This document shows positions 1 to 29,493 of a DNA stretch of 64,000 nucleotides, one piece after another (positions within the stretch are counted from its first letter, which is position 1; each line of letters starts with the position of its first letter). A program made the translations under genes and the position numbers. The notes beneath the pieces are model-generated. The model was not told the origin of the DNA, searched no databases, and saw only the letters and a program-made list of their open reading frames with translations. This DNA comes from an uncultured delta proteobacterium. Its GTDB lineage: Bacteria > Desulfobacterota > Binatia > Binatales > Binataceae. The DNA is taken from assembly GCA_963836955.1 (NCBI GenBank), contig CAWILO010000011.1, positions 776,715-840,714 of the forward strand. The letters run 5' to 3'.

Positions 1-7
1 CACGCTA

Positions 8-502
8 ATGACGCGGCTGCTGTACGAAGGATTCGCGGTCCACTGTGACGACATCGTCCTTTTGCGCCATGGTGACGTGCTTCCCTATCCCCGCCGATTC
101 TGGGTCCGGTCGCATGCGGTGCCATTGCTTCCGCAGATCGCGCCATTCGCTGCTCGGGCACCCGAAATGCGGGACCACTTCGTGCTGGATCCCACGGAGC
201 TCGGGTTTGAGTGGCAGATAGATGCCGCGCCTGCAGACACCGTCCTCTTTTTGGAGCCGAATCACGGTTCAACCACGCGGCTTGAGGCTTGCCCGAAGTA
301 CTTGATGGCCAAGCTCATCATGTCGCAATCTAATCTTCCTGCCGGCGGCGCATGCGACTGGGTGCGAGATGTGTGTGCGATGCTGGACCAAGCCGCGTCT
401 TATGTGCTACATAGCGGCAGTCTCGACACGGTTATCGAGGCCGTAAAGGAAGCGCTCGACCCAAGAATAGCGCAACCTGTAAGCGGGGAGGAGAGCCAAT
501 GA
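8..502 (+). CDS. hypothetical protein; the reading frame is open to the window start, so this may be the 3' part of a longer gene
   Basis: Track ORF of 164 aa with no in-frame stop upstream to position 2. Its stop overlaps the next start as ATGA at 499-502. I recognise no motif. Confidence 0.35.
   Translation: MTRLLYEGFAVHCDDIVLLRHGDVLPYPRRFWVRSHAVPLLPQIAPFAARAPEMRDHFVLDPTELGFEWQIDAAPADTVLFLEPNHGSTTRLEACPKYLMAKLIMSQSNLPAGGACDWVRDVCAMLDQAASYVLHSGSLDTVIEAVKEALDPRIAQPVSGEESQ
485..493 (+). promoter_or_regulatory. Shine-Dalgarno-like ggggaggag placed 6-14 nt before the ATG at 499
   Basis: Read directly: gcggggaggagagccaATGa. The upstream stop and downstream start overlap, consistent with translational coupling. 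Confidence 0.4.
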
Positions 503-834
503 GTGACGAAAAGCTTGATCGTGTGCTTCGAACCGTGGATCCGAGAAGGCGCTCTTTTCTCAAGAAGCTCGTTCTCGGCGCAGCTTTTTCCGTTCCGATC
601 ATAGCCTCATATTCCGTGAAGGACTTAGCGTATGCGCAGGTCGGGAGCCCACCGCCGACGACCACGAAGACGATCACGGTTACCACGAAGACCAGCACGG
701 TTACGACGAGCACGCCGGTTACGACGAGCACGCCGGTTACGACGAGCACACCGATTACGACGAGCAGCACGATTATGATCACGACGCCGCCGGCCACCCC
801 GATTACGACCTTCACGACTACGCCGCTGGGCTAG
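499..834 (+). CDS. small secreted protein with a Tat-type signal (RRSFLKKLVLGAA) and a Thr/Pro-rich repeat region
   Basis: N-terminus MSDEKLDRVLRTVDPRRRSFLKKLVLGAAFSVP resembles a twin-arginine signal. It is followed by the repeats TTSTPVTTSTPVTTSTPITT. Confidence 0.5.
   Translation: MSDEKLDRVLRTVDPRRRSFLKKLVLGAAFSVPIIASYSVKDLAYAQVGSPPPTTTKTITVTTKTSTVTTSTPVTTSTPVTTSTPITTSSTIMITTPPATPITTFTTTPLG
697..783. repeat. approximately 21-bp tandem repeat (acgacgagcacgccggttacg-like) in about 4 copies, encoding the TTSTPV repeats
   Basis: Seen directly in the sequence at 699-783. Coordinates are approximate. Confidence 0.5.
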
Positions 835-871: not shown

Positions 872-3800
872 TCAGGAAGATGTAACTGAAGTCGCATTCT
901 GCAACCGAGCGTCGTGTACGAATGGTGACAGCATCTCGCGAGCGAGCATCTTCGCGCCATGGCCCACGTCATAGACGTCGCTCTGGGCCGCCTTGAAAAG
1001 CGCAGGGAGCACGATGGGCCCGAGCCGAGCCACCGCTCCCCAGTTCTGTCCATCGATGTCGACATACGCCTGAAGCAAATCGCGGTAGTGTGAGCCGAGT
1101 TCGCGGCTGCAATCGACTCCTACCCGGAGCAGCGCCTGCGCCGCTTCGCGGGCGACGGCAGGCCACCGGTCCTGGAGAGCGGCAAGCAGTTCCGCCTTGG
1201 CATCAGAGGGAGCGATGCGCCCGAGGGCGGTAATCGCCCAGGTCCGGACCTCTGGATCAGGGCTGGCCAAAGCCCGGCGCAACGCCCCAGCGTCACGGGC
1301 ATCTCCGAAGCGACCGAGACCGGTCAGAGCCAGTTCGAGCAGCGATTTTCTCGGGCGGTGCGGTAGCGGCTGCGGGTCTCCTTCTCGCAAAAGTGCCGAC
1401 TCAAAGTGTGCAAAGCGGGCACCTGGAGAAAGAACGGGGACCAGCTTCTGTCTGCGTCCTCGAAAGCGAGGATGATACTCCGCTGAGAACGAACCCGCCG
1501 CCAAGAACATACGGAACGGCCGGCCTAGATTGTAGGCCAGGTGAGCCAGCCAGCCCTCGACTGTGACCACCAGATCGGCATACGTGGCGAAGTACTTGAA
1601 CACCCTCATCACTTGGTCGTTATAGGCGAGCGCGGACCGCTCGGAGAGCGCCGCCTTAGCTGCTTCGTCGGTCTCAGCAGGATCCGGCGCAATCCGAACG
1701 TCTGCACGGACGCTGGCTTCGAGCCGAGATAGAATAGTTTCTATTATGCGGCGACGGCCCCAAGGCTGGCCGTTAGGCAGAACGACGACCAAAAAGCCTT
1801 CGTCGACCAGCCCGGAGATCTCCGCCGCAAGGAGCGCGTCCTGCTCCAGGAAGCCCTTTGTGATGCCGCTGCCACCGAACGGATTCAGAATCGCAACCGC
1901 GTGCCTTCGGGAGCTTGGTTCCTGCGCGGTGAGCTCGGCCCAGAGTCGCTCTGCGTCGGCTGAGCGCGTCCCGGTCAGGACCGAGGGAGTAAGCGGAGTT
2001 TCTTCAGCCGCACGCTGCGGCAGGCCCAACTCGGCCAGCAGGCGCATCGTTGGCTCATACATGTTTCGAACCGTGCACTGGTCCAGCCCGCGAGATTGAG
2101 CGATGTCGATACCGCCGATCTTTACGGTTTGGTACAGGAAAGGTGAGCGGCTTCCGACATACCCCCCGCAGGCTCGGCCAAGGTCCCCCCTGATGACCAG
2201 GGCGGGCTGGTGCTCGGCGAGGTAGCGTTCGACGGCCGAGTGAACCTCGACCCGGAAGGTGAAACTTGGCCACTCGGGTTGGAAGAACTCGATCACGCCA
2301 TCGAGTCCTGCGAGCGCAGCCTGGATCGCCGCGTCGTCGCCAATCGGCACAGTCGTGATCCGGGGGTTGTCATAAAGATAGGTGCGCCAGGTGACGAGAG
2401 TGATCGAGAGCGCCGGGTTTACATCGAGCAATCCCTGAAGCAGTGGAGCTAGCCGCACCACGTCGTCTCCTTGTCCCATTCCGACGTTCAGAACCACGAA
2501 GAGTGCAATTGGGCGGTCTCTCAGGATCCCCGCGGCGGCCCCATGGAACGGGAAGCATCCCTCGAGTTCGAGCGAGAGCCACTCGCGTGCCTCCGCCGTG
2601 AGCGAGTGCTGAGCGGCCAACGAGTACAGCACGCAGCGATAGCGCGGCACATCCGAGAACGCACGTGCGATTTGCCGCAACCGCTCGGCGGTGAAAGCCT
2701 CAGGCGTGCTGAAGACGAAGCGCTCAACTCCTTGATCGAAAAGGTGCGGCCGGGAGCTGGCGAGTGCCGGCGACTCCGCCAGGGATATGATGCCATCCAG
2801 CCCGACAATGTCCTCGCGCCACTGAACGAACTCACTCACTAGAGGGAGCATAAGTTCGCGAGTGCCAGCGTCGAGGTGTTCGTCTCGAAGGATCTCGGAA
2901 ATGCGGGTCCAAGCGCGCGGCGCGATCGGGCTCGCTGCAAGAAACTCGAACAACTTCACAACTGCCCGGCCGATGGTCTCCGGGAGAGCGCTTCTTGTCA
3001 GGAGATGGGCAAGTCGCTCGACGAGCGACGGGTCGACCAAATCAGGCCGAGAGTAAAGGAGTGCGGCCAGCGTCGCCAGGGCGAGCTCGCAAAGGTCCTG
3101 ACTGTCCCTATCGAGTTGCAAAGCACCAGAAAGGTGCACGAGGCTCGCGGGGGCCAGCGATTCGGGGCAAGTCAGAGCCGTCCTGAGGACATCGGGGAGG
3201 GCGTGGCGCGCGGAAGAACGCTCTTGCTGTGAGGGGTGCGGGACCTCTCCAGGCCAACCGTGCAGATAAGGAGCCAGGAGCTGGCGGAGCACCGATTTGG
3301 CTTGCGACGCAAGAACGTAACTTTCGCTTTTTCCGGCGCGAAAAAGAGCCGGAAACGCGACGGGGCCCGCCTCGGCGACCGCGTGCCAGTTCTCGTGCAC
3401 GATATCTACCTGAATCTGAAGCAGGTCGCGATGTCGGGGCCCGAGTTCGAGGCCGCAGTCCACATTTCCCTCGAGCAGGGCCTCGGCTGCTGCTAGCACT
3501 ACAGTAGGGGCCCGATCCTCCAACGCCGCGAGAAGGTCCCTCTTTGCAGTGACCGGCGCGATCCTTCCGAGAGCGTCGACCGCCCATTTTCGTACGTCGC
3601 AATCCGGACTCGTCAGTGCTCGGCGAATCGCCGCGACGGTGTCGGCATCGGCGGGGCCGCGGAGTCCTGATAGGGCCAGCTCCAGTAAGGATTTCCTCGG
3701 GCCGTGTGGTAGTGGCGGGGAATCGGTGTCTCGCAGGAGCGCGCACTCCGCGTGAGAGATACGGCAGCGCTTCGAGAACGCGGTTACGAGCCGCTGTCCG

Positions 3801-5602
3801 CGCCCCCGTCCATACGGGAACCAGTCTGGTGTGAAGGATCCAGCCGCGAGGAATAGACGAAACGGGCGCCCGAGGTTGTAAGCGAGATGAGAAAGCCAAC
3901 CCTCCACGGTAACTACGAGGTCGGCGTAAGTAGTGAAGTACTTGAACAAGCGCATGATCCGGTCGGCGTACACGAGGTCGGGCCACTCGGCGAGGTCGAG
4001 CTGGGTCGCTCGATCGCTCTCTGCGGGATCGGGCGCCACCCGGACAGAGGCTAGGGTTTGCTGGTCGAGATGCGACAAGACGGCGAGAATGGTTTCGCGC
4101 CGGCCCCAAGGAGTGCCATTAGGCAGAATGACTACGAGATAGCCCTCGTCAACGAGGCCGCCGATATCAGCTGCGAGGACCCGGTCTTGGTGAAAGAAGC
4201 CCTTGGTGGGAGCGGCGCCACCGAATGGGTTCACTAAAACGGTTGCCCGGCGAGATGCAGAAAAATCTTGCTTCACGAGCTCGGCCCACGCGCGCTCGGC
4301 ATCGGCCGATCTCGCGCCGGTGAGAACCGACTGGGTGAGAGGCATCTCCTCGGCTACCCGCTGCGGCAAGCCAAGCTCGGCCATCAGCCGAAGACAGGGC
4401 TCGTAGATGCTGCTGAATGATCTCTGGTCCAGACCTAAGGAGTGTGCGACGTTACGGCCGCAGAGCTCTACTGTCTGGTAAAGAAACTCCGAGCGAATGC
4501 CGAGTTCCCCCTTTTGGGCTCGGCCGAGTTCTGCCAGAACCACGAAAGCCGGCCGACGCTCAACGATCAAGCGTTCGACGGCGGCGTGCAGCTTGAAGCG
4601 GTACGCGAAGTCGGGTCGGTCCGGTTGAAAGATCTCAATGACGCCTTCGTACGATTTCGCGAGTGCCGCTGCGACCGCGACATCGTCCTCAATCGATACC
4701 GTCTCCACGCGTGGGTTTTCGTAAAGATAGGTGCGCCGCGTAACCAGGGTGATGACGAGTGCGGGATTCGCATCGAGGAGCGCTTGCAGTAATGGCGCGA
4801 GTCGTACGATCTCGTCCCCCTGACCGAGAGCAATGTTCATAACGACGAGAAGCCGAACCGGACGATCCACGAGAACTGCCTCTGCAGTATCGCGAAGCGG
4901 GAAGCGCCCGGCGAGTCGATGCGTCAGCAGAGTCTCGACGTCCGCGGGGAGCGATCGGCGCGCCGCCAGGAAGTGAAGGACGTAGCGATAGCGCGGGGCA
5001 TGCTCGAAGAGCGTGGCGACACGGTCCAGCCGCTCGGCCGTAAAAGCCTCGGGCGTGGAAAAGACGAAAGGCTCGACACCGTGATCCAGGAGGAAGGCGC
5101 GGTGAACTGGAAGCGCTACGGACTCCGCGAGTTCGAGGACTCCATCCAGCCCCACGAGATCCTCGCGCCGCCGGACGAAATCACTTACAAGGGGAAGCAG
5201 TAGCTCTCGCGTTCTCGCCCCGAGGCGCTCGTCTAGCAGGATTCTGCGCAGCCGAGTCCAGGCCTGAGAGGCGGACGGGCTCGTGGTGAGGAATTCGAAC
5301 AGCCGCACCACGTTCGAGCTGATATCAGCCGGAAGCGACTCTGCGGAAGCGAGCTCGGCGAGTCGGTCGACAAGCTTAGATTCGACGAGGTCGGGACGAG
5401 AATAGAGGATCGCGGCGAGCGCTGAGAGCGCGAGTCTGGATAGCGCACAGTTTTCCTCGTCGAGCCTCAGCGCATCGATGACCGCAACAATTTTCGCTGG
5501 ATCGAGCGAAGATGGAGAGGTTAGTGCCAACAGCACGACCGCCTCAACAGCATCGCGCTGGTTGAGTGTCGCGCCAGAAAGCATCAGATTCTCATCGGTC
5601 AT
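872..5602 (-). CDS. 1576-aa protein made of two tandem ~788-aa modules. Each module is an N-terminal helical region, a glycosyltransferase family 9 (heptosyltransferase-like) domain and HEAT/PBS-lyase-type repeats
   Basis: The two halves align at roughly 55% identity. For example, RPVRLLVVMNIALGQGDEIVRLAPLLQALLDANPALVITLVTRRTYLYENPRV aligns with RPIALFVVLNVGMGQGDDVVRLAPLLQGLLDVNPALSITLVTWRTYLYDNPRI, and VLVNPFGGAAPTKGF aligns with AILNPFGGSGITKGF. The LGDG-like and NPFGG motifs match GT9 as recalled from memory. DVRKWAVDALGRIAP / EVRTWAITALGRIAP are HEAT-like. Confidence 0.6.
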   Translation of the reverse strand: MTDENLMLSGATLNQRDAVEAVVLLALTSPSSLDPAKIVAVIDALRLDEENCALSRLALSALAAILYSRPDLVESKLVDRLAELASAESLPADISSNVVRLFEFLTTSPSASQAWTRLRRILLDERLGARTRELLLPLVSDFVRRREDLVGLDGVLELAESVALPVHRAFLLDHGVEPFVFSTPEAFTAERLDRVATLFEHAPRYRYVLHFLAARRSLPADVETLLTHRLAGRFPLRDTAEAVLVDRPVRLLVVMNIALGQGDEIVRLAPLLQALLDANPALVITLVTRRTYLYENPRVETVSIEDDVAVAAALAKSYEGVIEIFQPDRPDFAYRFKLHAAVERLIVERRPAFVVLAELGRAQKGELGIRSEFLYQTVELCGRNVAHSLGLDQRSFSSIYEPCLRLMAELGLPQRVAEEMPLTQSVLTGARSADAERAWAELVKQDFSASRRATVLVNPFGGAAPTKGFFHQDRVLAADIGGLVDEGYLVVILPNGTPWGRRETILAVLSHLDQQTLASVRVAPDPAESDRATQLDLAEWPDLVYADRIMRLFKYFTTYADLVVTVEGWLSHLAYNLGRPFRLFLAAGSFTPDWFPYGRGRGQRLVTAFSKRCRISHAECALLRDTDSPPLPHGPRKSLLELALSGLRGPADADTVAAIRRALTSPDCDVRKWAVDALGRIAPVTAKRDLLAALEDRAPTVVLAAAEALLEGNVDCGLELGPRHRDLLQIQVDIVHENWHAVAEAGPVAFPALFRAGKSESYVLASQAKSVLRQLLAPYLHGWPGEVPHPSQQERSSARHALPDVLRTALTCPESLAPASLVHLSGALQLDRDSQDLCELALATLAALLYSRPDLVDPSLVERLAHLLTRSALPETIGRAVVKLFEFLAASPIAPRAWTRISEILRDEHLDAGTRELMLPLVSEFVQWREDIVGLDGIISLAESPALASSRPHLFDQGVERFVFSTPEAFTAERLRQIARAFSDVPRYRCVLYSLAAQHSLTAEAREWLSLELEGCFPFHGAAAGILRDRPIALFVVLNVGMGQGDDVVRLAPLLQGLLDVNPALSITLVTWRTYLYDNPRITTVPIGDDAAIQAALAGLDGVIEFFQPEWPSFTFRVEVHSAVERYLAEHQPALVIRGDLGRACGGYVGSRSPFLYQTVKIGGIDIAQSRGLDQCTVRNMYEPTMRLLAELGLPQRAAEETPLTPSVLTGTRSADAERLWAELTAQEPSSRRHAVAILNPFGGSGITKGFLEQDALLAAEISGLVDEGFLVVVLPNGQPWGRRRIIETILSRLEASVRADVRIAPDPAETDEAAKAALSERSALAYNDQVMRVFKYFATYADLVVTVEGWLAHLAYNLGRPFRMFLAAGSFSAEYHPRFRGRRQKLVPVLSPGARFAHFESALLREGDPQPLPHRPRKSLLELALTGLGRFGDARDAGALRRALASPDPEVRTWAITALGRIAPSDAKAELLAALQDRWPAVAREAAQALLRVGVDCSRELGSHYRDLLQAYVDIDGQNWGAVARLGPIVLPALFKAAQSDVYDVGHGAKMLAREMLSPFVHDARLQNATSVTSS

Positions 5603-5695
5603 TTGTCGCCCGTTGCCGCATGCAGTGTGATCCGGCGAGAATGCCTTTTAGCGCGACTGAGGCAGATATGAAATACTAATGACGGGGATTCACGA

Positions 5696-6127
5696 ATGAA
5701 GACGGATGGTGCGCGGACCGCAAAGTCAGTAACCATTGATGTCGCACCGGCGGATCTGCTCGACAGAATCACCGTGCTCGAGATTAAGAGCGAGCGGCTC
5801 ACCGCCGAACTGCCGTTGCGAAACGTGCGAACGGAGCTCGCATTGTTACGGGCCGCGCGCGATCGCTGGATACCTCCCGCGCCTGAGCTCGACCAACCGA
5901 CCGCTGAGCTCCGCCAAGTCAACGAGACTCTATGGGACTTGGAAGAAGCTGTTCGTCGCTGCGAAGCTGCCAACGACTTCGGCGAACAGTTCATTCAATC
6001 CGCGCGTTCGATAATACGCACGAATGACCGCAGGGCGGCGCTTAAGCGGGCGATCAACCGGACGCTCGGCGCGAGCTTTCAAGAAGAGAAGAGTTTTGCC
6101 CTGCCCGACCCCTCGGGGTCCGGCTAG
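5696..6127 (+). CDS. hypothetical protein (143 aa)
   Basis: Clean ORF between the GT9-like and GT25-like genes. No motif recognised. Confidence 0.4.
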   Translation: MKTDGARTAKSVTIDVAPADLLDRITVLEIKSERLTAELPLRNVRTELALLRAARDRWIPPAPELDQPTAELRQVNETLWDLEEAVRRCEAANDFGEQFIQSARSIIRTNDRRAALKRAINRTLGASFQEEKSFALPDPSGSG

Positions 6128-6139: not shown

Positions 6140-6927
6140 GTGAAGACTGGCGACCCCTTCGAATTCTTCAAAGCGATCTACTGCATTAATCTGGACAGCC
6201 GCCCTGACCGCTGGCAGGGGGCAACGCGCGAGTTCGCCGCTCTCGGGATCGCCGACCGGGTAGAGCGTGTGGCCGGCATCACGCACGTGGATCCCCACGA
6301 GGGTTGTCGGCTCAGCCACCTCGAGTGCGTGAGGCGCGCGGCCGCAGCCGGGGCTGAAACCGCACTTATCTTCGAGGACGACGTTACGTTGCCGGGGTTC
6401 TCGCGCGAGCTGCTGGCGAGGTCCTGGATCGGCTCCGCATGGTGCCCGATTGGGAGCTTTTCTTCCTTGGTGGCGTGGTCCTAGGCCGTCCTGCAGAACG
6501 ATGTGAGAATCTGTTCCGAGCACCCATCGCGCAGACTCACGCGTACGGGATTCATCGGCGGGCGTTCGCCGCGGTCGAGCGCTCCTATGCCCCAATCGAC
6601 CTTTTCTATGCGAATAACCTCAAATCGTACTGCGCGTATCCGATGCTCGCCTGGCAGCGCGACGGTTTTAGTAACATAGAGGGCGTCTCAACGTCGAGGG
6701 CGTATGAATCGAACCGGGCATACTTTCTTCTGAACTCGGCACCGCAGCACGAGGATGTCTTACGCGAGTTTCTTCTACGGCGATTCAGGGGACGCCTGAT
6801 CCGCCTCCGAATCCAACGACGTCTCGGTCAGAGCCTACGCCGTCTCGCTTCGCTCTTAGGTTTCATGCGGGGTCGCTCGCAAGTCAACCGCCCGATCACC
6901 AAGGACGAGGTCGTGCGAAAAATCTAG
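6140..6927 (+). pseudogene. glycosyltransferase family 25 (LPS/LOS glycosyltransferase-like), split by a frameshift near 6415-6430
   Basis: ORF 6140..6484 (YCINLDSRPDRW...IFEDDVTLPGF) continues in the other frame as ...VLDRLRMVPDWELFFLGGVVLG...AYGIHRRAF (ORF 6439..6927). The two pieces together cover a GT25-like domain. Confidence 0.55.
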
Positions 6928-7023: not shown

Positions 7024-8172
7024 TCAGTAAGCGACGAATCCGCCGTTCTCGATCAGCTTCACGGGCACGCCCTCGACGTCTTTCGGCACTGCGGCTTTCG
7101 CCTGCGGGGTCATCTTCTTGACGTAAACTTCGATCGCGGGCTGACCGGGCTGGTCGCTGATCCCGATTGCGGTACCGACCGCGCCCGGGATCTTCATGAG
7201 CTCATCCTCGTGCCGGTCGCGAACCGCGGTGGCCGAATCGACGAGGTCCTTCGACATGCCAATATCCCCGGCTTGGACGTCGGCCGCCGCGGGCTCCAAG
7301 GCCACCGGCGCCGCACAAGTGCCCGTCATCGACACGCCAAGCGCGCTCAGCACATCGGAGATCGGATTCGCGATCGTCATCGATCCGTCAGCGGACCCTG
7401 CGAACAACAGCGCGACCGCCTGAGGGCAACTGTCCTGCGTTACGATCAGTGATCCAGAATCGCCGCCGCTGCTAAAACTCGAGTTGTTAATCACAACCTC
7501 GTTGATGAACTTCGCGTTTTCCCCACCGCCATAGCTTATCTTGAAATTGCCAGAAACCGACGAGATCGTGCCGAAGGTGAGGCAGGTCGTTCGGCCCATC
7601 TTTTGGACCGCCAGCCCGATCGAGGGCGTAGCCACAGTGCTATTGATCGGCCCGATATTCTGGATTTCGGGGTTCACCATTCCCGGATTCACGGCGGCGA
7701 TGGCAGCATCGATGGTGTTCTTGCCGCCTCCGAACTTGATCTTGACGGTGCGGGTGAACGTTGCAACCGCATCAGCCGGCGTCTTCGTGCAGGGTACTGC
7801 TGTGTCCACGAGTCCGGGTTGCACGATGAGCTCGCCAGACTTGGCCAGGTTTATGTCCGCAAGAACATGATTGTTGCTGAGGATGAATTTGTTGTTGATC
7901 TGGTCCTGTACCATCGACCCCAGCGTCCCGCTGAAGCACTGGCGACCATGGTGGAGGAACGCGTTGATATTTCCGCCTGACACGCCGAGGTCAAATGGGC
8001 GAGGCAACGTCGATTGTTGATTGCAGACGATGGTGATCGCGCCAGCCGGCATCGACGCGGCCCCGATCGTCAGCATGCAAATCGCCAACGCGGCCGCCGT
8101 AGTTTGATATTTCGTAGTGGGCTCCCCTCTCGGAAATCGAAATCTCAGGTTCATTAAATTATTTATATGCAT
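7024..8172 (-). CDS. secreted trypsin-like (S1 family) serine peptidase
   Basis: Signal-like TAAALAICMLTIGAASMPAGA. The serine motif is SGGDSGSLIV (GDSG) and a His region is NNHVLAD. The true start is probably the internal Met (MNL...) near 8154, because the called N-terminus lies in an AT-rich stretch. Confidence 0.5.
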   Translation of the reverse strand: MHINNLMNLRFRFPRGEPTTKYQTTAAALAICMLTIGAASMPAGAITIVCNQQSTLPRPFDLGVSGGNINAFLHHGRQCFSGTLGSMVQDQINNKFILSNNHVLADINLAKSGELIVQPGLVDTAVPCTKTPADAVATFTRTVKIKFGGGKNTIDAAIAAVNPGMVNPEIQNIGPINSTVATPSIGLAVQKMGRTTCLTFGTISSVSGNFKISYGGGENAKFINEVVINNSSFSSGGDSGSLIVTQDSCPQAVALLFAGSADGSMTIANPISDVLSALGVSMTGTCAAPVALEPAAADVQAGDIGMSKDLVDSATAVRDRHEDELMKIPGAVGTAIGISDQPGQPAIEVYVKKMTPQAKAAVPKDVEGVPVKLIENGGFVAY

Positions 8173-9119: not shown

Positions 9120-9518
9120 TCGTGGAAACTCCGCCAACAGTTGCTGATGGCCATGACGACACCGTCGATCTACTGCAATTATTTCAGCCGAGGACATACA
9201 TTTACTATCGACCGCCGTACTGTTTGAACTCGATACCTCGGAATAACGCAATTCAGTGTCGATTCCGTAATGTCAGCTATCCAAAAGACGTGACTGGCGA
9301 TGCGGATGCAGCGTGATGGAGTTCTCAAGCGCGAGGAATTTATCGAATCGCCGGTGTATTTCTACCAGTCGCGGCGCTCCTGGACTTATCGATTGCTGTT
9401 GGATTGGTCGGAACCGCTGCGACACGGCACTCTGGCCAAGAATTGTGAGTCGTTTAAGTTTCAATGGCGTCATGCGGGCCGGTTCTCGGCTTGACGGGCG
9501 TCCGAGAGCAGAAGTTGA

Positions 9519-10516
9519 ATGAAGATCTCAGTCATAGTTCCTGTCTTCGACAGCGAACGCACACTGGGCAGCTGCCTGAGTAGTGTTTTTGAGGCCGAGT
9601 ACTGCGATTTTGAAGTGATCGTCGTTGACGATCATTCGAACGACAACAGCCGCGCGATCGCGCGCACGATGCCCTGCAAATTGATCGAGCTGCCAATCAA
9701 CGGTGGCCCTGCCGCGGCAAGAAATTGTGGAGCAGCCGCTGCATCCGGCTCACTACTGTTCTTCCTCGACGCCGACATTCTGATTCGCCCCGACTCGCTA
9801 GGCCGAGTTGCGGGAATGTTCGCTCGGCGGCCAGATATCGCCGCGCTGTTCGGCTCGTATCAAGCCGACACCCCATCCCCCGATTTTTTTTCCCAATACA
9901 CAAGAACCTGCTTCATCACTATACGCATCAGATTTCACATTCGGAGGCGACCACGTTTGCAAGCGGGTTCGGTGCGGTGCGGGCCGAGGTCTTCGCCTCC
10001 CTCGGAGGCTTCGATCCGGCCCAGCGCTTTCTTGAGGACATCGAGTTCGGTTACCGCATGCACAGCGCCGGCCATCGCATATGGCTCGACAAGCAACTTC
10101 AGCTGACGCATTGCAATCGCTACACGTTCGCGAGCCTAGTCCGCTCCGATTTTTTCGGCCGAGCAATTCCCTGGGCGCACCTGATGCTAAAGCGTCGGAT
10201 TTTCCAAAATGATCTGAACACCAGGCTGAGTAACGTGGTCAGTGTTCCGGTTTCGGTACTGCTGCTTGCCGCACCACTTTCGATTCGCTCCGCATGGGTT
10301 GGAACAGTCGCATTGACGCTGATCATGTTGTTCCTGGTTCTTAATCGTGGATTCCTTAAATTTGTGTTGTGGCAGAGGGGTTGGCGGTTCACGCTTGAGG
10401 CCGCTGTGATGACGTGGTTTGCATACTTGTACAGCGCCTTGGGTGCGCTCGCCGGCTTCGCTGGTTACTTGCGAGAGCGGCTCAGCGGTAGCGACGAAAT
10501 GGAGCCGGATGCCTGA
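9519..10516 (+). pseudogene. GT2 glycosyltransferase (polyprenyl-phosphate sugar synthase-like, with C-terminal TM helices) frameshifted at a C5-T8 homopolymer at 9877-9891
   Basis: MKISVIVPVFDSE...VIVVDDHSNDNS...LFFLDADI in frame 1 continues in another frame as RFFFPIHKNLLHHYTHQIS...LEDIEFGYRMHSAGHRIW. The tiled gene aligns along its length with the intact paralogue at 59592..60623. The frame switch maps to ccccc gat tttttttt. Confidence 0.6.
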
Positions 10517-10862
10517 AAGATTTAAGGTCCTGCTAGTGACCTTGCAGCTCAACGACGCACGCTGCCGCGTCCTGGCCCTGCGCAAGTCAGGCCCCGCTAC
10601 ACGATTCCACGCCGTCAAGGGTCCCATTTCGGCGGCGACCTGAGCAGACGCACGTTGTAAATAGGGGCCACTTCGAAGGTTTTGTCCGTGGGACCGTAAT
10701 CGACGGTGATTACCTCAGTATCGTCCGAAGCGTTCGAATAGCGGCGCGCCGGGTTTTCGGGCAGATCTTATGCTGGCTTGCTGGCTCGGAAACGGAACTT
10801 GCTCGTTCGCTTAGACTCTAGCCGGCGAGTTTCAGTTGGCGGAACTTGGCGGCTAAATGAGA

Positions 10863-11294
10863 TTAGCGGCCCAACGCCTGACGGACGGTGTTGAGAATGT
10901 AGAAGAAGTCGCGCGCGACTCGCACTTCGCCGAACAGCGGTACTTCGGACAGCATCTTCATCTCCTCGTTCGTGATGTTGTGGGTGGGGTGGCGTCGCTC
11001 GTTGTCAAGGAACTCCTCCCACGACGAGGTCGAATTGGACTTCGGTTCGGGCCTCAACAGCGCTTGGGCTCGAGGATTGGCTAGAAAAAAAAGCTCCCGG
11101 CGGTCGAGCCTGAGAACTTCTGCCAGCCGGGCGAGGATCTTGTCCGAGGGATGACTCCTGCCAGACTCGAGCATTCCAACATATTGTACTGAGATCCCGA
11201 CGTGGCGTGAGAGCTGCTCCCGAGTGAGATCTAGCATGCGTCGCCGCTCACGAATTACCCGTTCGAACGTTCGTGCCTTGGATCGGGATCGCAT
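10863..11294 (-). CDS. XRE-family helix-turn-helix transcriptional regulator
   Basis: HTH motif LTREQLSRHVGISVQYVGMLESGRSHPS. Confidence 0.6.
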   Translation of the reverse strand: MRSRSKARTFERVIRERRRMLDLTREQLSRHVGISVQYVGMLESGRSHPSDKILARLAEVLRLDRRELFFLANPRAQALLRPEPKSNSTSSWEEFLDNERRHPTHNITNEEMKMLSEVPLFGEVRVARDFFYILNTVRQALGR

Positions 11295-11442
11295 ATCAGG
11301 GGTGAGTTAACGAACAGATGAGCGCCAGCGAATCAAAAGCCGGGCAATCTGGACCGCCGCCGCTTTGAACATTGGCTTAGGAGCTGGCGCATTGCTAGAG
11401 CCTAGGATAGGCCCTCTCAAGTGGCTGCACGAGTTCCGGCGG

Positions 11443-11715
11443 TAAAGATAGAGAGAACTTCTAGGTGGGTCAAGCCCGTAGCCGTCCACTCGTCACAGAT
11501 ACACGGCGAAAATCACGAAAGCAAACGCAGCGACGAGCCGTAATGGCGGGTTTGAACATTGGGTATAGATGGCGCATGCTGGCGCAGGATATCCACCTGG
11601 TCTCGCTCGGAGTCGGCGTCAAGATAGAAGAGCACGCGAAAGATAGAGAGAACTTCTCGCCGGGTCAACCCCGTAGCCGCCCACTCGTCAACAGGTACAC
11701 GGCGAACATCACGCC
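11443..11715. repeat. two imperfect direct copies (~70 bp, ~85% identity) starting aaagatagagagaacttct, about 195 bp apart. Copy 2 lies inside ORF 11513..11818, and copy 1 is a frameshifted fragment of the same segment
   Basis: Seen directly: 11443-11517 versus 11638-11712. Confidence 0.5.
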
Positions 11716-11818
11716 TGCCGGCATCCGATCGGGATGCCCGTCCTTGAATACCGCGATCCATGAACTCGTGGTTCTCTGCCATAGCTTCCCACGCCTGCTT
11801 CCGGAGCCCGAAGAACAA
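11513..11818 (-). CDS. hypothetical small protein (101 aa). Part of its coding sequence is duplicated upstream
   Basis: The ORF contains copy 2 of the repeat (VPVDEWAATGLTRREVLSIF). The upstream copy is out of frame. The coding status is uncertain. Confidence 0.25.
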   Translation of the reverse strand: MFFGLRKQAWEAMAENHEFMDRGIQGRASRSDAGRRDVRRVPVDEWAATGLTRREVLSIFRVLFYLDADSERDQVDILRQHAPSIPNVQTRHYGSSLRLLS

Positions 11819-12543
11819 TATGGCCCCGACCTGGATCCGCTGATCACGCGCTCGACCAATCGGAAAGCGAGCGCGATCAGCTCAGCGGCGCCCTTTGGCG
11901 TAGCGGTCTATAGCAAGCAGGAAGAGATGACAGGCGGATCACTCAAGCCAAAGTCTTTCCTCGTCGGCGGCAACACGACGCTCAACGCGCCAGCTGGCGA
12001 TAACTTCGGCCCAGAGATCACCAACTAATCGATACAAACCCAAGCGCCACCGCCCCTTAAGCCAGAGGGGCGCTGGCCCTGGTGCACAACTACCACGACT
12101 CCAACCACGCGTGACACCGGCCTGATCCTCCCCAATTGTCGCTCGCACGCTTTCCGTGGTTGTCGGCCTGTCCCTGGCCGAAGTGGCGCTCACAAATCGA
12201 CGGGCGTCGGCGCGGCTCGAGGCCTGAATCAGTTTACGATCGTGCTGCACGGCACGGTCTCGCGGGTCAAATCCACTTACCTCGGCAATAGCTTATGACG
12301 GAGGGCGAGGTTCTCTAGTTCAAGAACAGCCCGACTACGGAATCAGCATCCAAGCCGAGAGACCATCGATCGCAAGAGCCGGAAGCACGCCGGCGATACT
12401 AGCCGGCGCATTCCCAAAACTCTAGGCTTTTTGTAGCTTTCAGAGTTTTTACTAGCCACAGATGCCTGGAAGCGGCTTGCAAAACGGGCGAGTTAAGGAG
12501 TATATCCGTTGTGTATCTTTAGACCCCGAAAGAGAGGTGGGCT

Positions 12544-12783
12544 TTGCGCGCTCGGATTGCGAAATGGGGAAACAGCCTGGGTGTTCGGATCCCGAAAGCC
12601 GTCGCCAAGGAAGTCGGGCTCGATGAAGGGGCGAACGTGGAAGTGAGGGTCTCCGGGCGAAATCTCGTCCTTGCTCCTGCTAGTCGCGAGTACAGCCTGA
12701 ACGAACTGGTCGCAGGGATCACGCCGAAGAACCGTCACGGGGAAATTGACTGGGGCGCGCCTATAGCCAACGAGAACTGGTGA
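12544..12783 (+). CDS. mazE: MazE/AbrB-type antitoxin
   Basis: IAKWGNSLGVRIPKAVAKEVGL is a SpoVT/AbrB swapped-hairpin motif. It overlaps the downstream toxin gene by 4 bp. Confidence 0.7.
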   Translation: MRARIAKWGNSLGVRIPKAVAKEVGLDEGANVEVRVSGRNLVLAPASREYSLNELVAGITPKNRHGEIDWGAPIANENW

Positions 12784-13124
12784 GCGCCGCGCGCTACGTA
12801 CCTGAACGCGGCGATCTTCTCTGGCTGACGTTCGATCCGCAAGCCGGCCACGAACAGGCCGGACGCCGCCCCGCTCTCGTGTTATCTCCCGCAGCGTACA
12901 ATCGTCGGGCGAACTTGGCGCTCGTGTGTCCGATTACGAGCCGGGCGAAGGGCTACCCCTTCGAGGTTGCGCTTCCAGCGGACTTGCCCCTGTCCGGCGT
13001 TGTCTTGGCGGACCATCTCAAGAGCGCGGACTGGGCGGCTCGACGAGCAGAGTTCGTAGCCAAGGTTTCCGCGGACGTGCTCGCGGAAGTGACCGCCAAG
13101 CTCCGGCCGTTGCTGGGTTTATAG
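12780..13124 (+). CDS. mazF: MazF/PemK-family endoribonuclease toxin
   Basis: YVPERGDLLWLTFDPQAGHEQAGRRPALVLSP...LALVCPITS is PemK/MazF-like. It sits in a 2-gene operon with the antitoxin. Confidence 0.7.
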   Translation: MSAARYVPERGDLLWLTFDPQAGHEQAGRRPALVLSPAAYNRRANLALVCPITSRAKGYPFEVALPADLPLSGVVLADHLKSADWAARRAEFVAKVSADVLAEVTAKLRPLLGL

Positions 13125-13301
13125 GGAGCACAGATGCCGCGGATCTTTGACGTCATCGACGCTGCGCTGTTCCCCTGTGGCTTCTCCTAACCTGATCCGC
13201 GCAAGGAAGACACAAAGGGTGGCGCGGACGTTCAAGATGACCTTTTCCGAATGCACCGGTCAACCTGATCGCACACTCTCCGGCTTGACGCGGCGCTGAT
13301 A

Positions 13302-13805
13302 TTATTGCCGGGTCCATTCGCCGGCAATCAGTACCACACCGGGCTGAAGATTGGTTGCCTTCACAACCTTGTCGCCTTGCGCGATCACCAGCGCCTGCTG
13401 GAAAGATTCGGAGCACTGCGGATCCGAAGACGAAAGGTTGATCGAGTCAGTGCCGGTGCCGTTGGGATTGACGGTGTACATGCCGCTTATGCCGACGTTG
13501 ATGCAGGAATGGCCGCCGCCGTTAGTGGTGAAATTGTAGCTTTCGGTGCCGCTCAGATGGCCGGCGCCGTCGGCGTGGTACACTCCCGTTCCGCCCACGA
13601 ATTCCACGCTGGTCGCGCCAGGAATCGCGGCCGAGAAAGAGAACCCATAGTTGCCCTTGATGCTCGCGGGGGAGAAACCGGTCTGCGCGGTGGCAATAGC
13701 ACCCGACGAACGGCATCCGGCGTAAGCACAACATCCCAGCCCCAGTATAGCCAATCCAAGCAACCGGCGATTTACCATCAGCTCCTCCGCTATTTCTTTT
13801 CCCAC
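13302..13805 (-). CDS. secreted hypothetical protein / putative lipoprotein
   Basis: N-terminal LLGLAILGLGCCAYAGC is signal/lipobox-like. The rest is Gly/Thr/Ser-rich. Confidence 0.4.
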   Translation of the reverse strand: MGKEIAEELMVNRRLLGLAILGLGCCAYAGCRSSGAIATAQTGFSPASIKGNYGFSFSAAIPGATSVEFVGGTGVYHADGAGHLSGTESYNFTTNGGGHSCINVGISGMYTVNPNGTGTDSINLSSSDPQCSESFQQALVIAQGDKVVKATNLQPGVVLIAGEWTRQ

Positions 13806-14600
13806 AACCCGCTGAACATTCCGCGCTCAGTCTATTAGCCCGAACGCTAGACTCGGTTGCGCTCCAGCCCGCCAATTTGATGGTGCAGCGCGGTCAGTTC
13901 CAACACCAGCTCGGTACGGGTCCGGACGTGGCTTACGGCGACCTGGAGTGCCCGTGGCGGCCCAGCATTACTAAGACTTTTGAGACACAACACTAGCCGT
14001 AAAAGCGTCCCAAATTCTGCTTGAGTCGGGCCACCGGCGTAACGACCGCTCAGTCGAGAACCTCGCGCATTCTGGTCCACCTCGCCAGCGGATCCATCAG
14101 GGAGCCGAAGGGCCCGAGCAGGAGGTCGACAACCCCGAGTATCAAGAAAGCGCGATGCACGAATCAGCCGCCAGCGTATTGTTTGATTCAAATCCGCTGC
14201 GGCGGCGGCTTCCAGATGCGCGCGGCGATCGCCTTTGCTTCAGCACGGCTTCAAGTTCGTCAAAGTAGCAGCTCGCGAAGTTGGGCCAATCCATCAAGTC
14301 AACTTCCAGGTTGAACCTTCCATTCGGGCTGAACCCGCGATGCCATTGGTAGTTGAAGAAGGAAATGACATCGACGATAGCAGGTTCCTCGGCAAACTCA
14401 GCTTAAAATACACCCGAAAGTTTGGTCCGACAGCGCCGTGCTCACGGTAGCGAAGCGGCACGGTTAACGGCTCAATTGTCGGAATGATGGCGCGCGTTCA
14501 AAACCGCGGTGGTTGGGTTCTACCGCGCGGCACGCGAGAAGAAAGCGTTGCCGCCACCAACGTGGCAGCGGCAATTCAAATTAGACGCCACATAATCAAC

Positions 14601-16370
14601 TTAGAACCCACACGTGCAGATGCCATGCCCCGAGCCGTGTTGGTTGATAAATTCGCATTGGTTGAAGAGGTTGTTAAGTTCCGGCGCTTCGAGAACAGAA
14701 TTCGCGAACGCTGCGACCGACGTCTTCGTTACGAACCCAAAGGGCGGAGTGAAACCCGCCTGATTGCTGGCCATCGACTCAGTATGGTTGATCCACGCGT
14801 GTAGTCCCCGTTCCTGCGGCATGGGAAACGTCTCGCTGTTCGGGCAGATGGAGGTCTCCCCGGGGCCCACTGATAGCGGCGGGACACCTACGATCTTGAT
14901 TACGCCAGCCTCCAAAGACCCACCGGTGAGGGGATTCGAGGTCAGATTACCTATCGTGGAAAGGGTCAGCAATGCGTTAGGCGATAAATCGCATGAACAG
15001 CATTCCTGCATTTCCTGTATATCATCGAACACATAAATGTTCGCGCATATGTCACCCTTGAGTGCGGGGTTGGTGAAATTGCCCGCGTTCACGATACGGA
15101 GCAGGGCGTCGCCGGCGCCTCCCGAATGACCCGGCCCGCCATAGCCACCCTCTGATTTGTCGAAGGCGGTCGACGTGTCGTAGTAGCTTATCAACATATT
15201 CACAGTAACCATGAGCGTCGCGGCGGACGAGACGCTGGTAGCGCCTTCGGTGGTCTGCAAGGCGCCGGCCGGCACCGTGTTGACAAAGCTACCCACGGTC
15301 GACGAGGTCACGTTCACCGTTAATGTGCAGAAGCCTGGAATGGCAACGCTGCCGCCCGGGATTGTGCTCCCACTCGGCAAGGTCACCGAGGAGCCGAACG
15401 GGGTTGCAGTCGGCACCCCAACGCCACAGGTGGTGGCGACGTTCGGTGTACCGGCAATCATCAAGCCAGCCGGCAAGTTGTCGGTGAAATCCGCGGTCAA
15501 AGTGGCCTCAGCTGAGTTGGTGTTGGTAAAAGTAATGGTTTTGGTCGAGCTACCGCCCCCAGTGATGGTGGACGGGATAAAGGACACGAAGACCCCGACA
15601 CCGCCCGAAGGCGGCACACCGGAGCATACGGTCGCGTTGACGGTGTCATTAATCAACGTCACTGCGCCATTCTGCGCCAAGGCTCTACCGCTGAGGGTGA
15701 CACCGTTATTCATGCTGATGCTCTGGAGCGCGATAATAGTTCCCGCGAACGTAGTGGTTGTATCGAGAGTCGCGGAGCTGCCGACCTGCCAAAAGACGTT
15801 GCAAGGTTGAGCGCCACCTTCAAAAACAACCGACGAGCCGGGTCCGGTCGTGAGCGTTGACCCTATCCTGAAAACCCAGACATCCGTGGGGCCGCCATTA
15901 AATGTGAGCGCTCCTGAATTCTGCACTGATGACGAAAAACAATAGACGCCTGGGAGGAGTGTTTGTCCTGCCAGATCCATCGGCCCAAAGGGACCGAAAT
16001 CGCAAGCCTGGCTGCCTAGATTATTGGCCGCCGTGGTGGCATCAGTCTGAGCCCCAAGCGCGACCGCATCAGTTATATGTGTTGTTCCCGGAGGCACCAC
16101 GATCCCTGGAGGAAATCCGGTGACCGCGGTGCCCGGGCTGAGACCCAAATCTCCCCTGATGATGCTAGGGCCGGTATTGGTCACCGTCGAGCTACCCAGG
16201 ACCGCAAAACTTGCCGCCTGGCCCAGTGGAGGAGCTGTCGCGGCCCATGCCGGGGAGGTGCCGGAAAGAAGCGCTGCCAATGCCACGGTTTCCAAGACAC
16301 TCAAGTAGGCCGGCAAAGTTAAACTTCCGATCCGTTTCATGGATTCCTCCCCAACGTGTTGGTCCCCCAC
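14601..16370 (-). CDS. ice-binding-like (DUF3494) family secreted protein with a C-terminal Cys-rich domain
   Basis: Signal peptide, then AAPPLGQAASFAVLGSSTVTNTGPSIIRGDLGLSPGTAVTGF...TFAGTIIALQSISMNNGVTLSGRALAQNGAVTL, typical of DUF3494 as recalled. The C-terminal region holds more than 10 Cys (CCSCD...CTCGF). Confidence 0.55.
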   Translation of the reverse strand: MGDQHVGEESMKRIGSLTLPAYLSVLETVALAALLSGTSPAWAATAPPLGQAASFAVLGSSTVTNTGPSIIRGDLGLSPGTAVTGFPPGIVVPPGTTHITDAVALGAQTDATTAANNLGSQACDFGPFGPMDLAGQTLLPGVYCFSSSVQNSGALTFNGGPTDVWVFRIGSTLTTGPGSSVVFEGGAQPCNVFWQVGSSATLDTTTTFAGTIIALQSISMNNGVTLSGRALAQNGAVTLINDTVNATVCSGVPPSGGVGVFVSFIPSTITGGGSSTKTITFTNTNSAEATLTADFTDNLPAGLMIAGTPNVATTCGVGVPTATPFGSSVTLPSGSTIPGGSVAIPGFCTLTVNVTSSTVGSFVNTVPAGALQTTEGATSVSSAATLMVTVNMLISYYDTSTAFDKSEGGYGGPGHSGGAGDALLRIVNAGNFTNPALKGDICANIYVFDDIQEMQECCSCDLSPNALLTLSTIGNLTSNPLTGGSLEAGVIKIVGVPPLSVGPGETSICPNSETFPMPQERGLHAWINHTESMASNQAGFTPPFGFVTKTSVAAFANSVLEAPELNNLFNQCEFINQHGSGHGICTCGF

Positions 16371-19101: not shown

Positions 19102-19710
19102 TCAATCGCTCGAGTGCGCCCGTGGAGAGCGATTTGCGAGCACTGCACCGCAGCTCAACACCAGCAGGGTCATCGCGGCAGAGAGCCGAAACGCGAGCAC
19201 GCAATACAGAGCGGTCAACAAAATATCTCCCGCAACAAGCATGATGTCGTAGGCTGCTTGTCCTATGCGATCGAGTTCGCCGGTCAGCGCATGGGTAAAA
19301 TCCGATGCTCGGCTGCGGCAAATGAACAGCCAGTCAGCGTTCGCGATCGCGCGATAGAGCCGCAGACGCATATCGAGCACAAACTGCTGCTCGACCGCGA
19401 ACATCGCCACGCTCTGCAGCCTGCCGACGATCGTTCGCAGCGCAATCAGCGCCACCCACATAGCGAGCAGAATTTCCAGTGACGGAGTGACCCCCAGAGC
19501 AGAAAATGCGCGTTCGATCACGCGCGCGTAGCCGCCCGCTGAACCTTGGCCGGCAAGGTTCATTCCCGCCGCTTCGAGGGTCGGTAGCAACAGCAGGATA
19601 CCGAAGCCTTCAGTGAGAGAGAACGCAACCATCAAGACAACCGCGCCGCCCAGACGCCATCGCGTGGCCCGCGCAAGTTGAGAGAAGAAGATGCGCGCGG
19701 TACGTCCCAT
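19102..19710 (-). pseudogene. ABC exporter transmembrane domain (type I exporter, McjD-like position). Only about 4 TM helices are present. The 3' part, including the ATPase, is absent
   Basis: 202-aa ORF with an ABC-exporter TMD-like N-terminus (RWRLGGAVVLMVAFSLTEGFGILLLLP...). No Walker/LSGGQ motifs appear in any frame in the 575 bp downstream. Confidence 0.5.
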
Positions 19711-21435: not shown

Positions 21436-21486
21436 GCCCGCGCCAATTGCGCCACGGCATTCCGAGCTTCAACGCGCACCTGAGAG

Positions 21487-22428: not shown

Positions 22429-22453
22429 TGCGAAGACCAGTGTGGCGGCACCT

Positions 22454-26270: not shown

Positions 26271-26323
26271 GGCATCAGACCCGGTTGCTCTGAGAGTAAT
26301 TTCGAGACTTGAATCATCCGCAC

Positions 26324-29472: not shown

Positions 29473-29493
29473 AGCCCGCTGGTCATGGTTCGC

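Follow-up and report, generated by a model that had tools for sequence, protein, structure and literature searches.

Introduction

Linear polyphosphorylated peptides (LPPs) are a family of RiPPs, peptides made by the ribosome and modified after translation, described from Bacillota (Popov et al., Nat Commun 2026, PMC13381572). LPP precursors have a conserved leader with a Y-x-x-P motif and a variable C-terminus; the core of LppA begins AQSNWK and its S3 is polyphosphorylated (PMC13381572). The gene clusters include an SpI-like leader peptidase and an MsbA-like exporter, lie in loci rich in polysaccharide and glycosyltransferase genes and often stand beside lasso-peptide clusters of the paeninodin type, and the tailoring set of paeninodin and pseudomycoidin is related to the LPP system (PMC13381572, PMC6993621). 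The activity of the LPP nucleoside triphosphate (NTP) transferase could not be reconstituted, and the authors proposed an outside partner for the glycosylation step (PMC13381572). This study concerns a 64,000-bp stretch of DNA from an uncultured delta proteobacterium of the family Binataceae (GCA_963836955.1, contig CAWILO010000011.1, positions 776,715 to 840,714), hereafter the window, and in it a gene for a protein of 1576 amino acids (aa). This protein is a rare fused member of a hitherto uncharacterised family, in which a GT9-like glycosyltransferase (GT) domain is combined with HEAT repeats (GT-HEAT family); the family is tied to an LPP-like cassette whose genes encode a precursor peptide, a chaperone of the PqqD type and an HprK-related kinase. 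The LPP family is the closest described system, and it has no such enzyme; the word 'heptosyl' is absent from the LPP paper and its sole 'heat' is in an unrelated methods sentence (PMC13381572).

On the enzyme side the nearest comparison is with the GT9 heptosyltransferases of LPS synthesis WaaC (HepI) and WaaF (HepII) (PDB 2h1h/2gt1/1psw, 3tov). Motifs of the present domain that align with theirs are the G-D loop following strand 1, a lysine at the place of WaaC K192 and [DE]-x-G-x-x-H-[LV]-A, but identity is 17-19% and the domain lies below PF01075 detection. Furthermore, the present protein adds a 245-aa helical domain and a 150-aa HEAT domain, occurs as two tandem copies and is surrounded by peptide-modification genes instead of waa genes. 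The protein O-heptosyltransferases TibC/AAH (bacterial autotransporter heptosyltransferases, BAHT; structure 4rap) are GT9-like enzymes that act in the cytoplasm, where they add heptose to serines of autotransporter adhesins. TibC forms an iron-finger dodecamer and lacks helical-repeat domains; it modifies large autotransporters and not peptides with a leader, and it has no RiPP recognition element (RRE) or kinase partners. Structural similarity of the present module to TibC is much weaker than to WaaC/WaaF, and neither of the two marks of BAHT membership, close TibC similarity and an adjacent autotransporter gene, was found for the present protein. In SunS-type glycocin S-glycosyltransferases (GT2 with TPR-like repeats) and in OGT (TPR with GT-B) helical repeats present an extended peptide, and GtfA/GtfB is an obligate pair of paralogous GT-B proteins that glycosylates serine-rich repeat adhesins. 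The likeness of these enzymes to the present protein is one of design principle and of paralogous pairing on a Ser/Thr-rich substrate; they belong to the GT2, GT41 and GT4/GT8 families, have no sequence relationship to it and are functional analogies only.

Two paralogous modules in one reading frame

The open reading frame (ORF) has an ATG start, and an identical 1576-aa product is recorded as a called gene on a 961,263-bp NCBI/ENA contig. An earlier note on this DNA, made from the letters alone, had described the protein as two collinear halves with corresponding motifs. Local alignment of residues 1-790 with residues 791-1576 bears this out: aa 16-781 pair with aa 799-1563, 447 of 766 columns are identical (58.4%) with one 1-residue gap and a BLOSUM62 score of 2201, far above chance. 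Taken domain by domain, the modules are 55% identical in their N-terminal helical parts, 61% in the GT domain and 57% in the HEAT repeats. At the DNA level the halves are 61% identical (39% at third codon positions), with a synonymous divergence (dS) of about 1.85 and a longest common exact word of 16 nt. Since synonymous divergence is saturated and common words are short, the duplication is ancient and is not an assembly duplication or collapse.

Comparison with orthologues supports the same conclusion. In this text, L numbers denote loci and P numbers proteins. P0058, an orthologue of 1569 aa, aligns collinearly along the window protein (69% identity in the 1567 columns that the BLAST alignment covers, 1% gaps), and the junction is read in frame in P0001 (79%), P0002, P0003 (99%), P0005 and P0058. 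The contig L024, 99% identical to the window, has no indel near the junction; its sole indel inside the big ORF is a frameshift at window position 3696.

Two kinds of artefact were weighed as explanations of the single ORF: a frameshift error that merges a pair of neighbouring genes with overlapping ends, and an assembly in which sequence was duplicated or collapsed. The two modules of L001 are encoded by genes that overlap by 4 bp, so that one indel could fuse them, and related long contigs are frameshifted (L024 as above; P0002 and P0005, which read through their ends), while the GT25 and GT2 genes of the window carry indels relative to L024. Against this stand the homologous linker, in frame and of equal length in orthologues at 99%, 79% and 69% identity, the full-length P0058 among them, the intact junction in L024, and the halves themselves, which have no exact word longer than 16 nt in common and are saturated at synonymous sites. 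An artefact is therefore considered very improbable; misassembly, which the earlier note had named as a danger, and recent duplication were both rejected on the L024 comparison, the collinearity of P0058 and the DNA divergence of the halves. The 1576-aa ORF joins two paralogous modules in frame; the fusion is genuine and has been kept by selection.

The fused form is rare, as the earlier note had supposed. The family search found 57 proteins. A profile search of 1.84 billion cluster representatives gave several dozen single-module clusters of about 650-850 aa, and only one 50%-identity cluster, that of P0058, contained two full modules. In L001 (Candidatus Methylomirabilis) the modules are separate adjacent genes for 784 and 792 aa with a GTGA overlap; L029, L030 and L039 have a second, independent-looking adjacent gene pair, and many genomes have a single module only. 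In a neighbour-joining tree each window module is nearer to single-module relatives (66-67% identity) than to its sister module (58%). The pairing of paralogues recurs in the family, and by these sequence comparisons the pair is fused in the window lineage. The nearest named relatives are from Candidatus Methylomirabilis and Rokubacteria, and related loci occur in Methylomirabilota/Rokubacteria, Acidobacteriota and similar soil lineages. One protein of the window clusters, at 90% identity or more, with a protein labelled Candidatus Binatus; tentatively, the DNA probably stems from a soil bacterium of one of these lineages.

Several further arrangements were seen among relatives. The first N-terminal helical domain of the L051 orthologue is called as a separate 248-aa gene (9258..10004) with a 4-bp overlap with the rest (10001..13978); either an error has shifted the frame, or the gene is naturally divided where two domains meet. 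P0052, P0053, P0055 and P0056 are distant relatives, and in some relatives the module is joined to a domain of the GT2 or Anp1 type. A GT9-like module lies within frames of at least 2000 aa from Planctomycetes and Omnitrophota (L018 3..6470, L019 2319..9473 and L022 5755..20073); these frames run from stop to stop and may span more than one gene, and that of L022 also has a sigma-70 domain. L018 has two GT modules. In L001 the precursor pair and the 3' end of the second GT-HEAT gene are duplicated as a segment (11558..13093 and 11883..12527), which gives four precursors and a stray C-terminal fragment of the GT gene.

Fold and active-site motifs of the GT domain

The earlier note had assigned three parts to each module, a helical domain, a GT9-like domain and HEAT repeats, and this division holds. 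The Pfam model HEAT_2 exceeds its cut-off (27.7 bits) in module 1 (aa 641-709, 31.6 bits) and in module 2 (aa 1420-1491, 41.5 bits) and matches 45 of the 46 family members. Scanned entire and half by half against Pfam and NCBIfam (E ≤ 1), the protein matched HEAT-type models only and no glycosyltransferase family, and a PDB sequence search gave designed alpha-repeat proteins only. The AlphaFold model of module 1, built with 46 homologues, has a mean predicted local distance difference test (pLDDT) score of 92.6 and a predicted template modelling (pTM) score of 0.92; it consists of an all-helical domain (3-245), two Rossmann-like halves (250-625) and HEAT helices (634-779). The fold is GT-B, and the best structural neighbours of the module model, by a wide margin, are the GT9 enzymes WaaC and WaaF. 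Profile comparison with hhalign agrees, the GT domain aligning over its full length with Escherichia coli WaaC/WaaF/WaaU at 96.5% probability (E 8e-10); the match is convincing only when the GT domain alone is set against this three-sequence GT9 alignment, and the full-length family profile against single sequences gave weak results (WaaC 0.85%, WaaF 64% probability).

The aligned positions include donor-binding and catalytic positions of GT9 enzymes. K467 of the NPFGG..KGF motif aligns with the K192 region of WaaC. E567-G-W-x-x-H572 of the VEGWxxHLAY motif aligns with WaaC D261-T-G-x-x-H266, that is, with the D-[ST]-G-x-x-H-L-A-A motif, D-T-G being replaced by E-G-W. The invariant GQGD263[DE] loop after strand 1 aligns with the G12-D13 loop of WaaC, with an ambiguous register of the Asp in hhalign. 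The catalytic domain is thus GT9-like by fold and motifs and lies outside the Pfam GT9 model; of the GT9 assignment in the earlier note, the fold stands, the motifs align with the departures just given, and formal Pfam membership is not supported. A distant relative in L022 does pass PF01075 (29.9 bits, cut-off 22).

The motifs GQGD[DE], NPFGG..KGF and VEGW..HLAY are all kept in both modules, and 26 columns are invariant across 46 family sequences, both window modules among them. The ratio of nonsynonymous to synonymous divergence (dN/dS) against the 79%-identical L051 orthologue is 0.22 for the first and 0.19 for the second GT domain; in the helical and HEAT domains it is 0.28-0.37, and the 20 codons of the linker give 0.82. 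Given motif retention and low dN/dS, both GT copies look intact and functional, which answers the question the earlier note had raised on their active sites. In a two-module AlphaFold model (aa 246-1419) both halves fold, the linker is disordered and pTM is 0.59; because the single-module homologues all aligned to module 2 and pTM is at this level, the model tells nothing firm on contacts between modules.

The same residues bear on whether the protein is an enzyme at all. A catalytically inactive scaffold or adaptor would be a pseudo-enzyme that assembles the RRE, kinase, nucleotidyltransferase and precursor, or holds the Thr-rich peptide. HEAT/ARM repeats are typical scaffolds, the domain lies outside Pfam GT9, and paired paralogous GT-B systems, GtfA/GtfB for example, have one partner that does not catalyse. 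The residues aligning with GT9 donor-binding and catalytic positions are, however, kept in both modules and invariant across the 46 sequences, and constraint within the protein is strongest in its two GT domains, so that an inactive scaffold is regarded as unlikely. On balance, each module is predicted from its sequence to be a cytoplasmic glycosyltransferase with a divergent GT9-like GT-B domain between a helical-repeat domain and HEAT repeats.

A putative peptide-modification cassette beside the GT-HEAT genes

Local hidden Markov models (HMMs) built from the cassette genes (peptide leader, PqqD-like protein, P-loop kinase) were used to scan the homologue loci. The peptide-leader family and a PqqD-like gene, with or without the kinase, adjoin close GT-HEAT homologues in more than 13 distinct loci (L001/L002/L026, L003, L004, L006, L007, L012, L017, L024/window, L030, L031, L033, L040, L048 and L051). 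Full-length kinase orthologues match TIGR04352 HprK_rel_A (HprK-related kinase A; E 3e-13 and 2e-7), and the small proteins match PqqD and TIGR04353 (HPr-rel-A system PqqD family peptide chaperone; E 1e-4), in both cases below the curated cut-off. The cleanest case is L003, in which a GT-HEAT gene, a 58-aa peptide, the kinase and PqqD alone form the cassette amid unrelated genes. The peptide gene of L004, L052 and L053 is enclosed by an operon whose other members are GT2-TPR, GT4, Anp1, GT10, NodZ, methyltransferase and sugar-nucleotide genes. The reverse test, starting from the peptide alone, found a GT-HEAT gene in three of four loci (L052, L053 and L055), in L055 at the contig end and in the convergent layout of the window. 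In L001, L004, L025, L052, L053 and L054 no more than a few genes separate the cassette from an NTP_transf_5-type nucleotidyltransferase; the window copies are 14 kb and 48 kb from the cassette, the nearer one being part of a lasso-like cluster.

In the window the cassette is cut by the window start. The stop codon of the kinase gene overlaps the precursor ATG (ATGA), and in the near-identical contig L024 the full kinase, a P-loop protein of 296 aa, and after it a PqqD protein of 87 aa are encoded just past the window edge. The precursor gene is convergent with the big ORF; its product is MSDEKLDRVLRTVDPRRRSFLKKLVLGAAFSVPIIASYSVKDLAYAQ then VGSPPPTTTKTITVTT..., with a core that starts AQVGS. 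The core is encoded by tandem repeats of 18 and 21 bp (VTTSTP units; window 661..775), and the copy number differs by 18 bp from L024 (12862..12879); core length appears to vary between close strains. The leader has Tat-like (twin-arginine translocation) features, namely RRRSFLKK, a hydrophobic stretch and AYAQ, and the best NCBIfam match is a Tat-target model, at no better than E 0.03.

The leader profile retrieves 402 small proteins, 53-90 aa long among the 120 best listed; the matches are annotated as 'hypothetical protein' bar one evident mislabel, and none has a Pfam domain. Among these 120 best peptides, F-x-x-P-x-[VILMT] is present in all (Phe, not Tyr or Trp), and x-F-L-K is preceded by K-R in 109 and by R-R in 10. 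Two core types were distinguished. In the threonine-rich type (52 peptides) the leader ends ..SVKDLA-x-AQ and the core, with a median of about 20 aa, is 41% Thr and has a Ser within its first five residues in 43 of 52 cases; by sequence the window peptide is a long example of this type. In the SN type (63 peptides) the leader ends ..SMDGLS-x-YEA-x-AQ before a short core, and a small residue then Asn, mostly S-N, falls within the first eight residues after ..AQ in 60 of 63. GT clades roughly track core type, with L004, L006, L033 and L053 in the P0038-P0045 clade.

N-glycosylation of N-x-S/T after the SN-type leader was considered, as several cores stop right after S-N-x, and was rejected because the identical AQSN is the serine phosphorylation site in LppA, which better explains the conservation. 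In some loci the leader also precedes products of about 110-200 residues beyond the leader, often with S-N-[ILM] shortly after (Table 1); the tail of the L033 product may, in our reading, be a phage tail-fibre intramolecular-chaperone domain. These larger products suggest that the leader may act as a general tag and not strictly as a RiPP leader.

The cassette resembles the LPP system in several respects. A discrete PqqD-type RRE and an HprK-like kinase stand beside the precursor or precursors, often with an NTP_transf_5-type nucleotidyltransferase; there are one to several precursors with an aromatic-x-x-P in a conserved N-terminus and a highly variable C-terminus; a Ser near the core start is conserved to the extent counted above, and the AQ-S-N core start of LppA recurs in the present cassette. 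The setting is likewise rich in GT and polysaccharide genes, with a lasso-type cluster nearby (window 19.7-26.4 kb). The differences are that LPPs were described as Bacillota-only, whereas the present loci come from Methylomirabilota/Rokubacteria, Acidobacteriota and similar soil lineages, and that the present leader has F-x-x-P where LPP leaders have Y-x-x-P, contains the element (K/R)R-x-F-L-K-K and ends in A-x-A-Q. Moreover, the SpI-like peptidase and MsbA-like exporter of LPP clusters are missing here: neither a Peptidase_S24/S26 family member nor an MsbA-type ABC exporter is in the gene tables of L001, L003, L004, L024, L051, L052, L053 and L054. Full-text searches on the HPr-rel-A/HprK-related kinase, on DUF6165, on heptosyltransferase with RiPP and on twin-arginine with RiPP returned no relevant literature.

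The earlier note had read the protein as a transferase of the lipopolysaccharide (LPS) core type. According to this alternative it would act in LPS-core, lipooligosaccharide or other glycolipid or polysaccharide synthesis, adding two successive sugars, with the HEAT repeats as a scaffold for envelope enzymes. The closest folds are WaaC and WaaF, the relative P0055 is named 'ADP-heptose:LPS heptosyltransferase' in one source, GT25-like and GT2 genes lie just upstream with a Wzx/Wzy exopolysaccharide locus at 26-45 kb, and the relatives fused to GT2 or Anp1 domains were counted in its favour, as they were for a peptide glycosyltransferase. Nevertheless, the conserved partners are the precursor peptide, the PqqD-type chaperone and the HprK-related kinase, with no waa, 3-deoxy-D-manno-oct-2-ulosonic acid (Kdo) or lipid A gene among them. 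The surroundings of the L003 cassette are without any sugar-related gene, and the GT25 and GT2 neighbours of the window are not conserved in L001, L003 and L051. Homologues also occur in Thermomicrobia and Chloroflexia, lineages commonly regarded as having no LPS. The gene context speaks against LPS as the acceptor; a role in the LPS core is probably a misreading, and a role of this wider kind in glycolipid or polysaccharide synthesis is judged improbable.

Proposed function of the GT-HEAT protein

The gene neighbourhood suggests that the GT-HEAT family is tied to a RiPP-type peptide-modification cassette, and we lean towards the reading that the protein is a peptide-directed glycosyltransferase of an LPP-like pathway. 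In such a pathway the PqqD-type protein would bind the conserved F-x-x-P leader and the HprK-related kinase would phosphorylate the conserved serine at the core start. The GT-HEAT protein, if catalytically active, would then glycosylate the peptide core, with either many threonines or a phosphoserine-linked glycan as the acceptor site; in the window the likely substrate is the convergent 111-aa precursor with its threonine-rich 64-residue core. The helical repeats may hold the extended peptide, or a complex of chaperone and leader, at the active site. The two modules could divide the labour by adding different sugars or serving different sites, or could be a permanently joined heterodimer. The leader, which resembles a signal peptide and ends in A-x-A, may do the work of a dedicated peptidase and pump.

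A number of observations weigh against a peptide-directed glycosyltransferase. PF01075 (GT9) has no match at E ≤ 1 for the 1576-aa protein or either half and matches a single one of the 46 family members (E = 0.05), and the two-module model yields no confident geometry between modules. The association with the peptide is one of gene neighbourhood, and it has gaps: the peptide locus L054 has no GT-HEAT gene within -6.5/+10 kb, the family loci L005 and L025 have no peptide and PqqD genes, and loci of distant homologues (36% identity or less) have no PqqD-like, HprK-like or leader-type genes, even at lax thresholds. The acceptors of characterised GT9 enzymes are mostly sugars or lipids, and the window also has GT25 and GT2 genes and a large exopolysaccharide locus, which would fit a polysaccharide role here. 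Finally, a GT2-TPR gene of SunS-like architecture directly follows the precursor in every SN-type locus read (Table 1). It could be the true peptide glycosyltransferase, in which case the GT9-like enzyme would only extend the glycan. This gene is absent beside the threonine-rich peptide type.

A wider proposal, which we put forward tentatively and hold to be possible rather than probable, is that GT9-like/HEAT proteins are the hallmark of an undescribed LPP-type branch outside Bacillota. In it a PqqD chaperone would hold the leader-bearing peptides, a conserved serine would be phosphorylated, and glycosylation in the cytoplasm would follow, heavy on Thr-rich cores; the peptides would leave the cell by way of their signal-peptide-like leader, with neither peptidase nor pump dedicated to them. 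The GT-HEAT protein would in this case be the partner that the LPP authors proposed for glycosylation, and the fused form a heterodimer that builds a mucin-like glycopeptide.

Other features of the window

The coordinates of all features are listed in Table 1.

Table 1. Positions of the features of the 1576-aa ORF, its cassette and other genes in the window, and of selected genes in related loci.
Feature	Position	Strand	Evidence or motifs
HprK-related kinase gene, 3' part, cut by window start	1..502	+	local P-loop HMM, E 5e-63
Precursor peptide gene, 111 aa, convergent with big ORF	499..834	+	translation; AGGAG upstream of ATG
Precursor leader, aa 1-47	499..639	+	RRRSFLKK, AFSVPII, AYAQ
Precursor threonine-rich core, 64 residues	640..831	+	18-bp tandem repeats
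Fused double-module ORF, 1576 codons, ATG start	872..5602	-	ORF call and translation
Module 1 N-terminal all-alpha repeat domain, aa 1-245	4868..5602	-
Module 1 GT9-like GT-B domain, aa 246-630	3713..4867	-	GQGDE 260-264, NPFGGAAPTKGF 458-469, VEGWLSHLAY 566-575
Module 1 C-terminal HEAT repeats, aa 631-785	3248..3712	-	Pfam HEAT_2 and modelled helices 634-779
Inter-module linker, aa ~786-805	3188..3247	-	pLDDT <50 in two-module model
Module 2 N-terminal helical repeat domain, aa ~806-1035	2498..3187	-	collinear with module 1; modelled helices only, pLDDT >90
Module 2 GT9-like GT-B domain, aa ~1036-1415	1358..2497	-	GQGDD 1043-1047, NPFGGSGITKGF 1240-1251, VEGWLAHLAY 1348-1357
Module 2 C-terminal HEAT repeats, aa ~1416-1576, and stop codon	872..1357	-	Pfam HEAT_2 1420-1491, HEAT 1441-1465
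DUF6165 gene, 143 aa, divergent from big ORF	5696..6127	+	PF19662, E 3e-11
GT25-like glycosyltransferase gene	6140..6927	+	PF01755; split by 1-bp deletion vs L024, ~6422
589-aa protein, Ice_binding-like domain then DUF7933	14601..16370	-	PF11999, E 6e-57; NCBIfam ice-binding model below cut-off
NTP_transf_5 of lasso-type cluster	19710..21002	-
HprK_rel_A-like P-loop protein of lasso-type cluster, one of two	21487..22428	-
HprK_rel_A-like P-loop protein of lasso-type cluster, other of two	22684..23682	-
Asn-synthase-like lasso cyclase	24031..25974	-	NF033535, E 7e-116, below cut-off
Lasso PqqD chaperone	25974..26384	-
Wzx/Wzy-type exopolysaccharide locus	26324..45132	-
Second NTP_transf_5 gene, far from both peptide cassettes	53974..55164	-
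GT2 gene with C-terminal TPR, L004	18500..19627
GT2 gene with C-terminal TPR, L052	10225..11670
GT2 gene with C-terminal TPR, L053	10315..11436
GT2 gene with C-terminal TPR, L054	6793..7923
Larger leader-bearing product, L007	5475..6137
Larger leader-bearing product, L017	13072..14647
Larger leader-bearing product, L030	7354..8247
Larger leader-bearing product, L031	3224..4084
Larger leader-bearing product, L033	1712..2284

The DUF6165 gene is a recurrent neighbour of the family and adjoins the family gene in L025 and L051 too. An ORF overlapping the start of the big ORF (5599..5994, minus strand) was considered as an upstream gene and rejected, as it is antisense to the DUF6165 gene called in orthologous contigs. 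A promoter scan found no site, and a terminator scan found fewer sites than expected by chance.

The adjacent GT25 gene reported in the earlier note was found: PF01755 (cut-off 24) scores 29.3 bits at 6140..6484 and 26.6 bits in the intact L024 orthologue. Ten indels separate the window from L024 in 10.5 kb, among them those at about 6422, 8343-8858 and 9899. Those that break frames in the window fall in the GT25-like gene and in a GT2 gene (9519..10516), and L024 in its turn is frameshifted once in each of two genes, the big ORF and the peptide gene. These indels are either assembly errors or strain-level pseudogenes.

A trypsin-like peptidase (7024..8172) is not a conserved neighbour. The cluster at 19710..26384 on the minus strand is of the lasso-peptide type, and its presence parallels the neighbouring lasso and LPP clusters reported from Bacillota. 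The exopolysaccharide locus contains a WbaP-like initiating transferase, an epimerase, two Wzy_C proteins (one with TPR), four GT1/GT2 genes, a flippase, a GNVR tyrosine-kinase-type co-polymerase and a Poly_export protein.

Significance

If the proposed function is right, a new enzyme type, GT9-like and flanked by helical repeats, would join the short list of peptide and protein glycosyltransferases, and a RiPP family described only in 2026, and only from Bacillota, would be extended to several soil phyla. The analysis supplies about 400 candidate precursor peptides of two clear core types and a concrete candidate for the LPP glycosylation step that could not be reconstituted. Like LPPs, the peptides sit beside polysaccharide loci, and the compact four-gene cassette makes their role directly testable. 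The series from single gene to adjacent gene pair to fused protein would provide a clean case for why paralogous glycosyltransferases pair.

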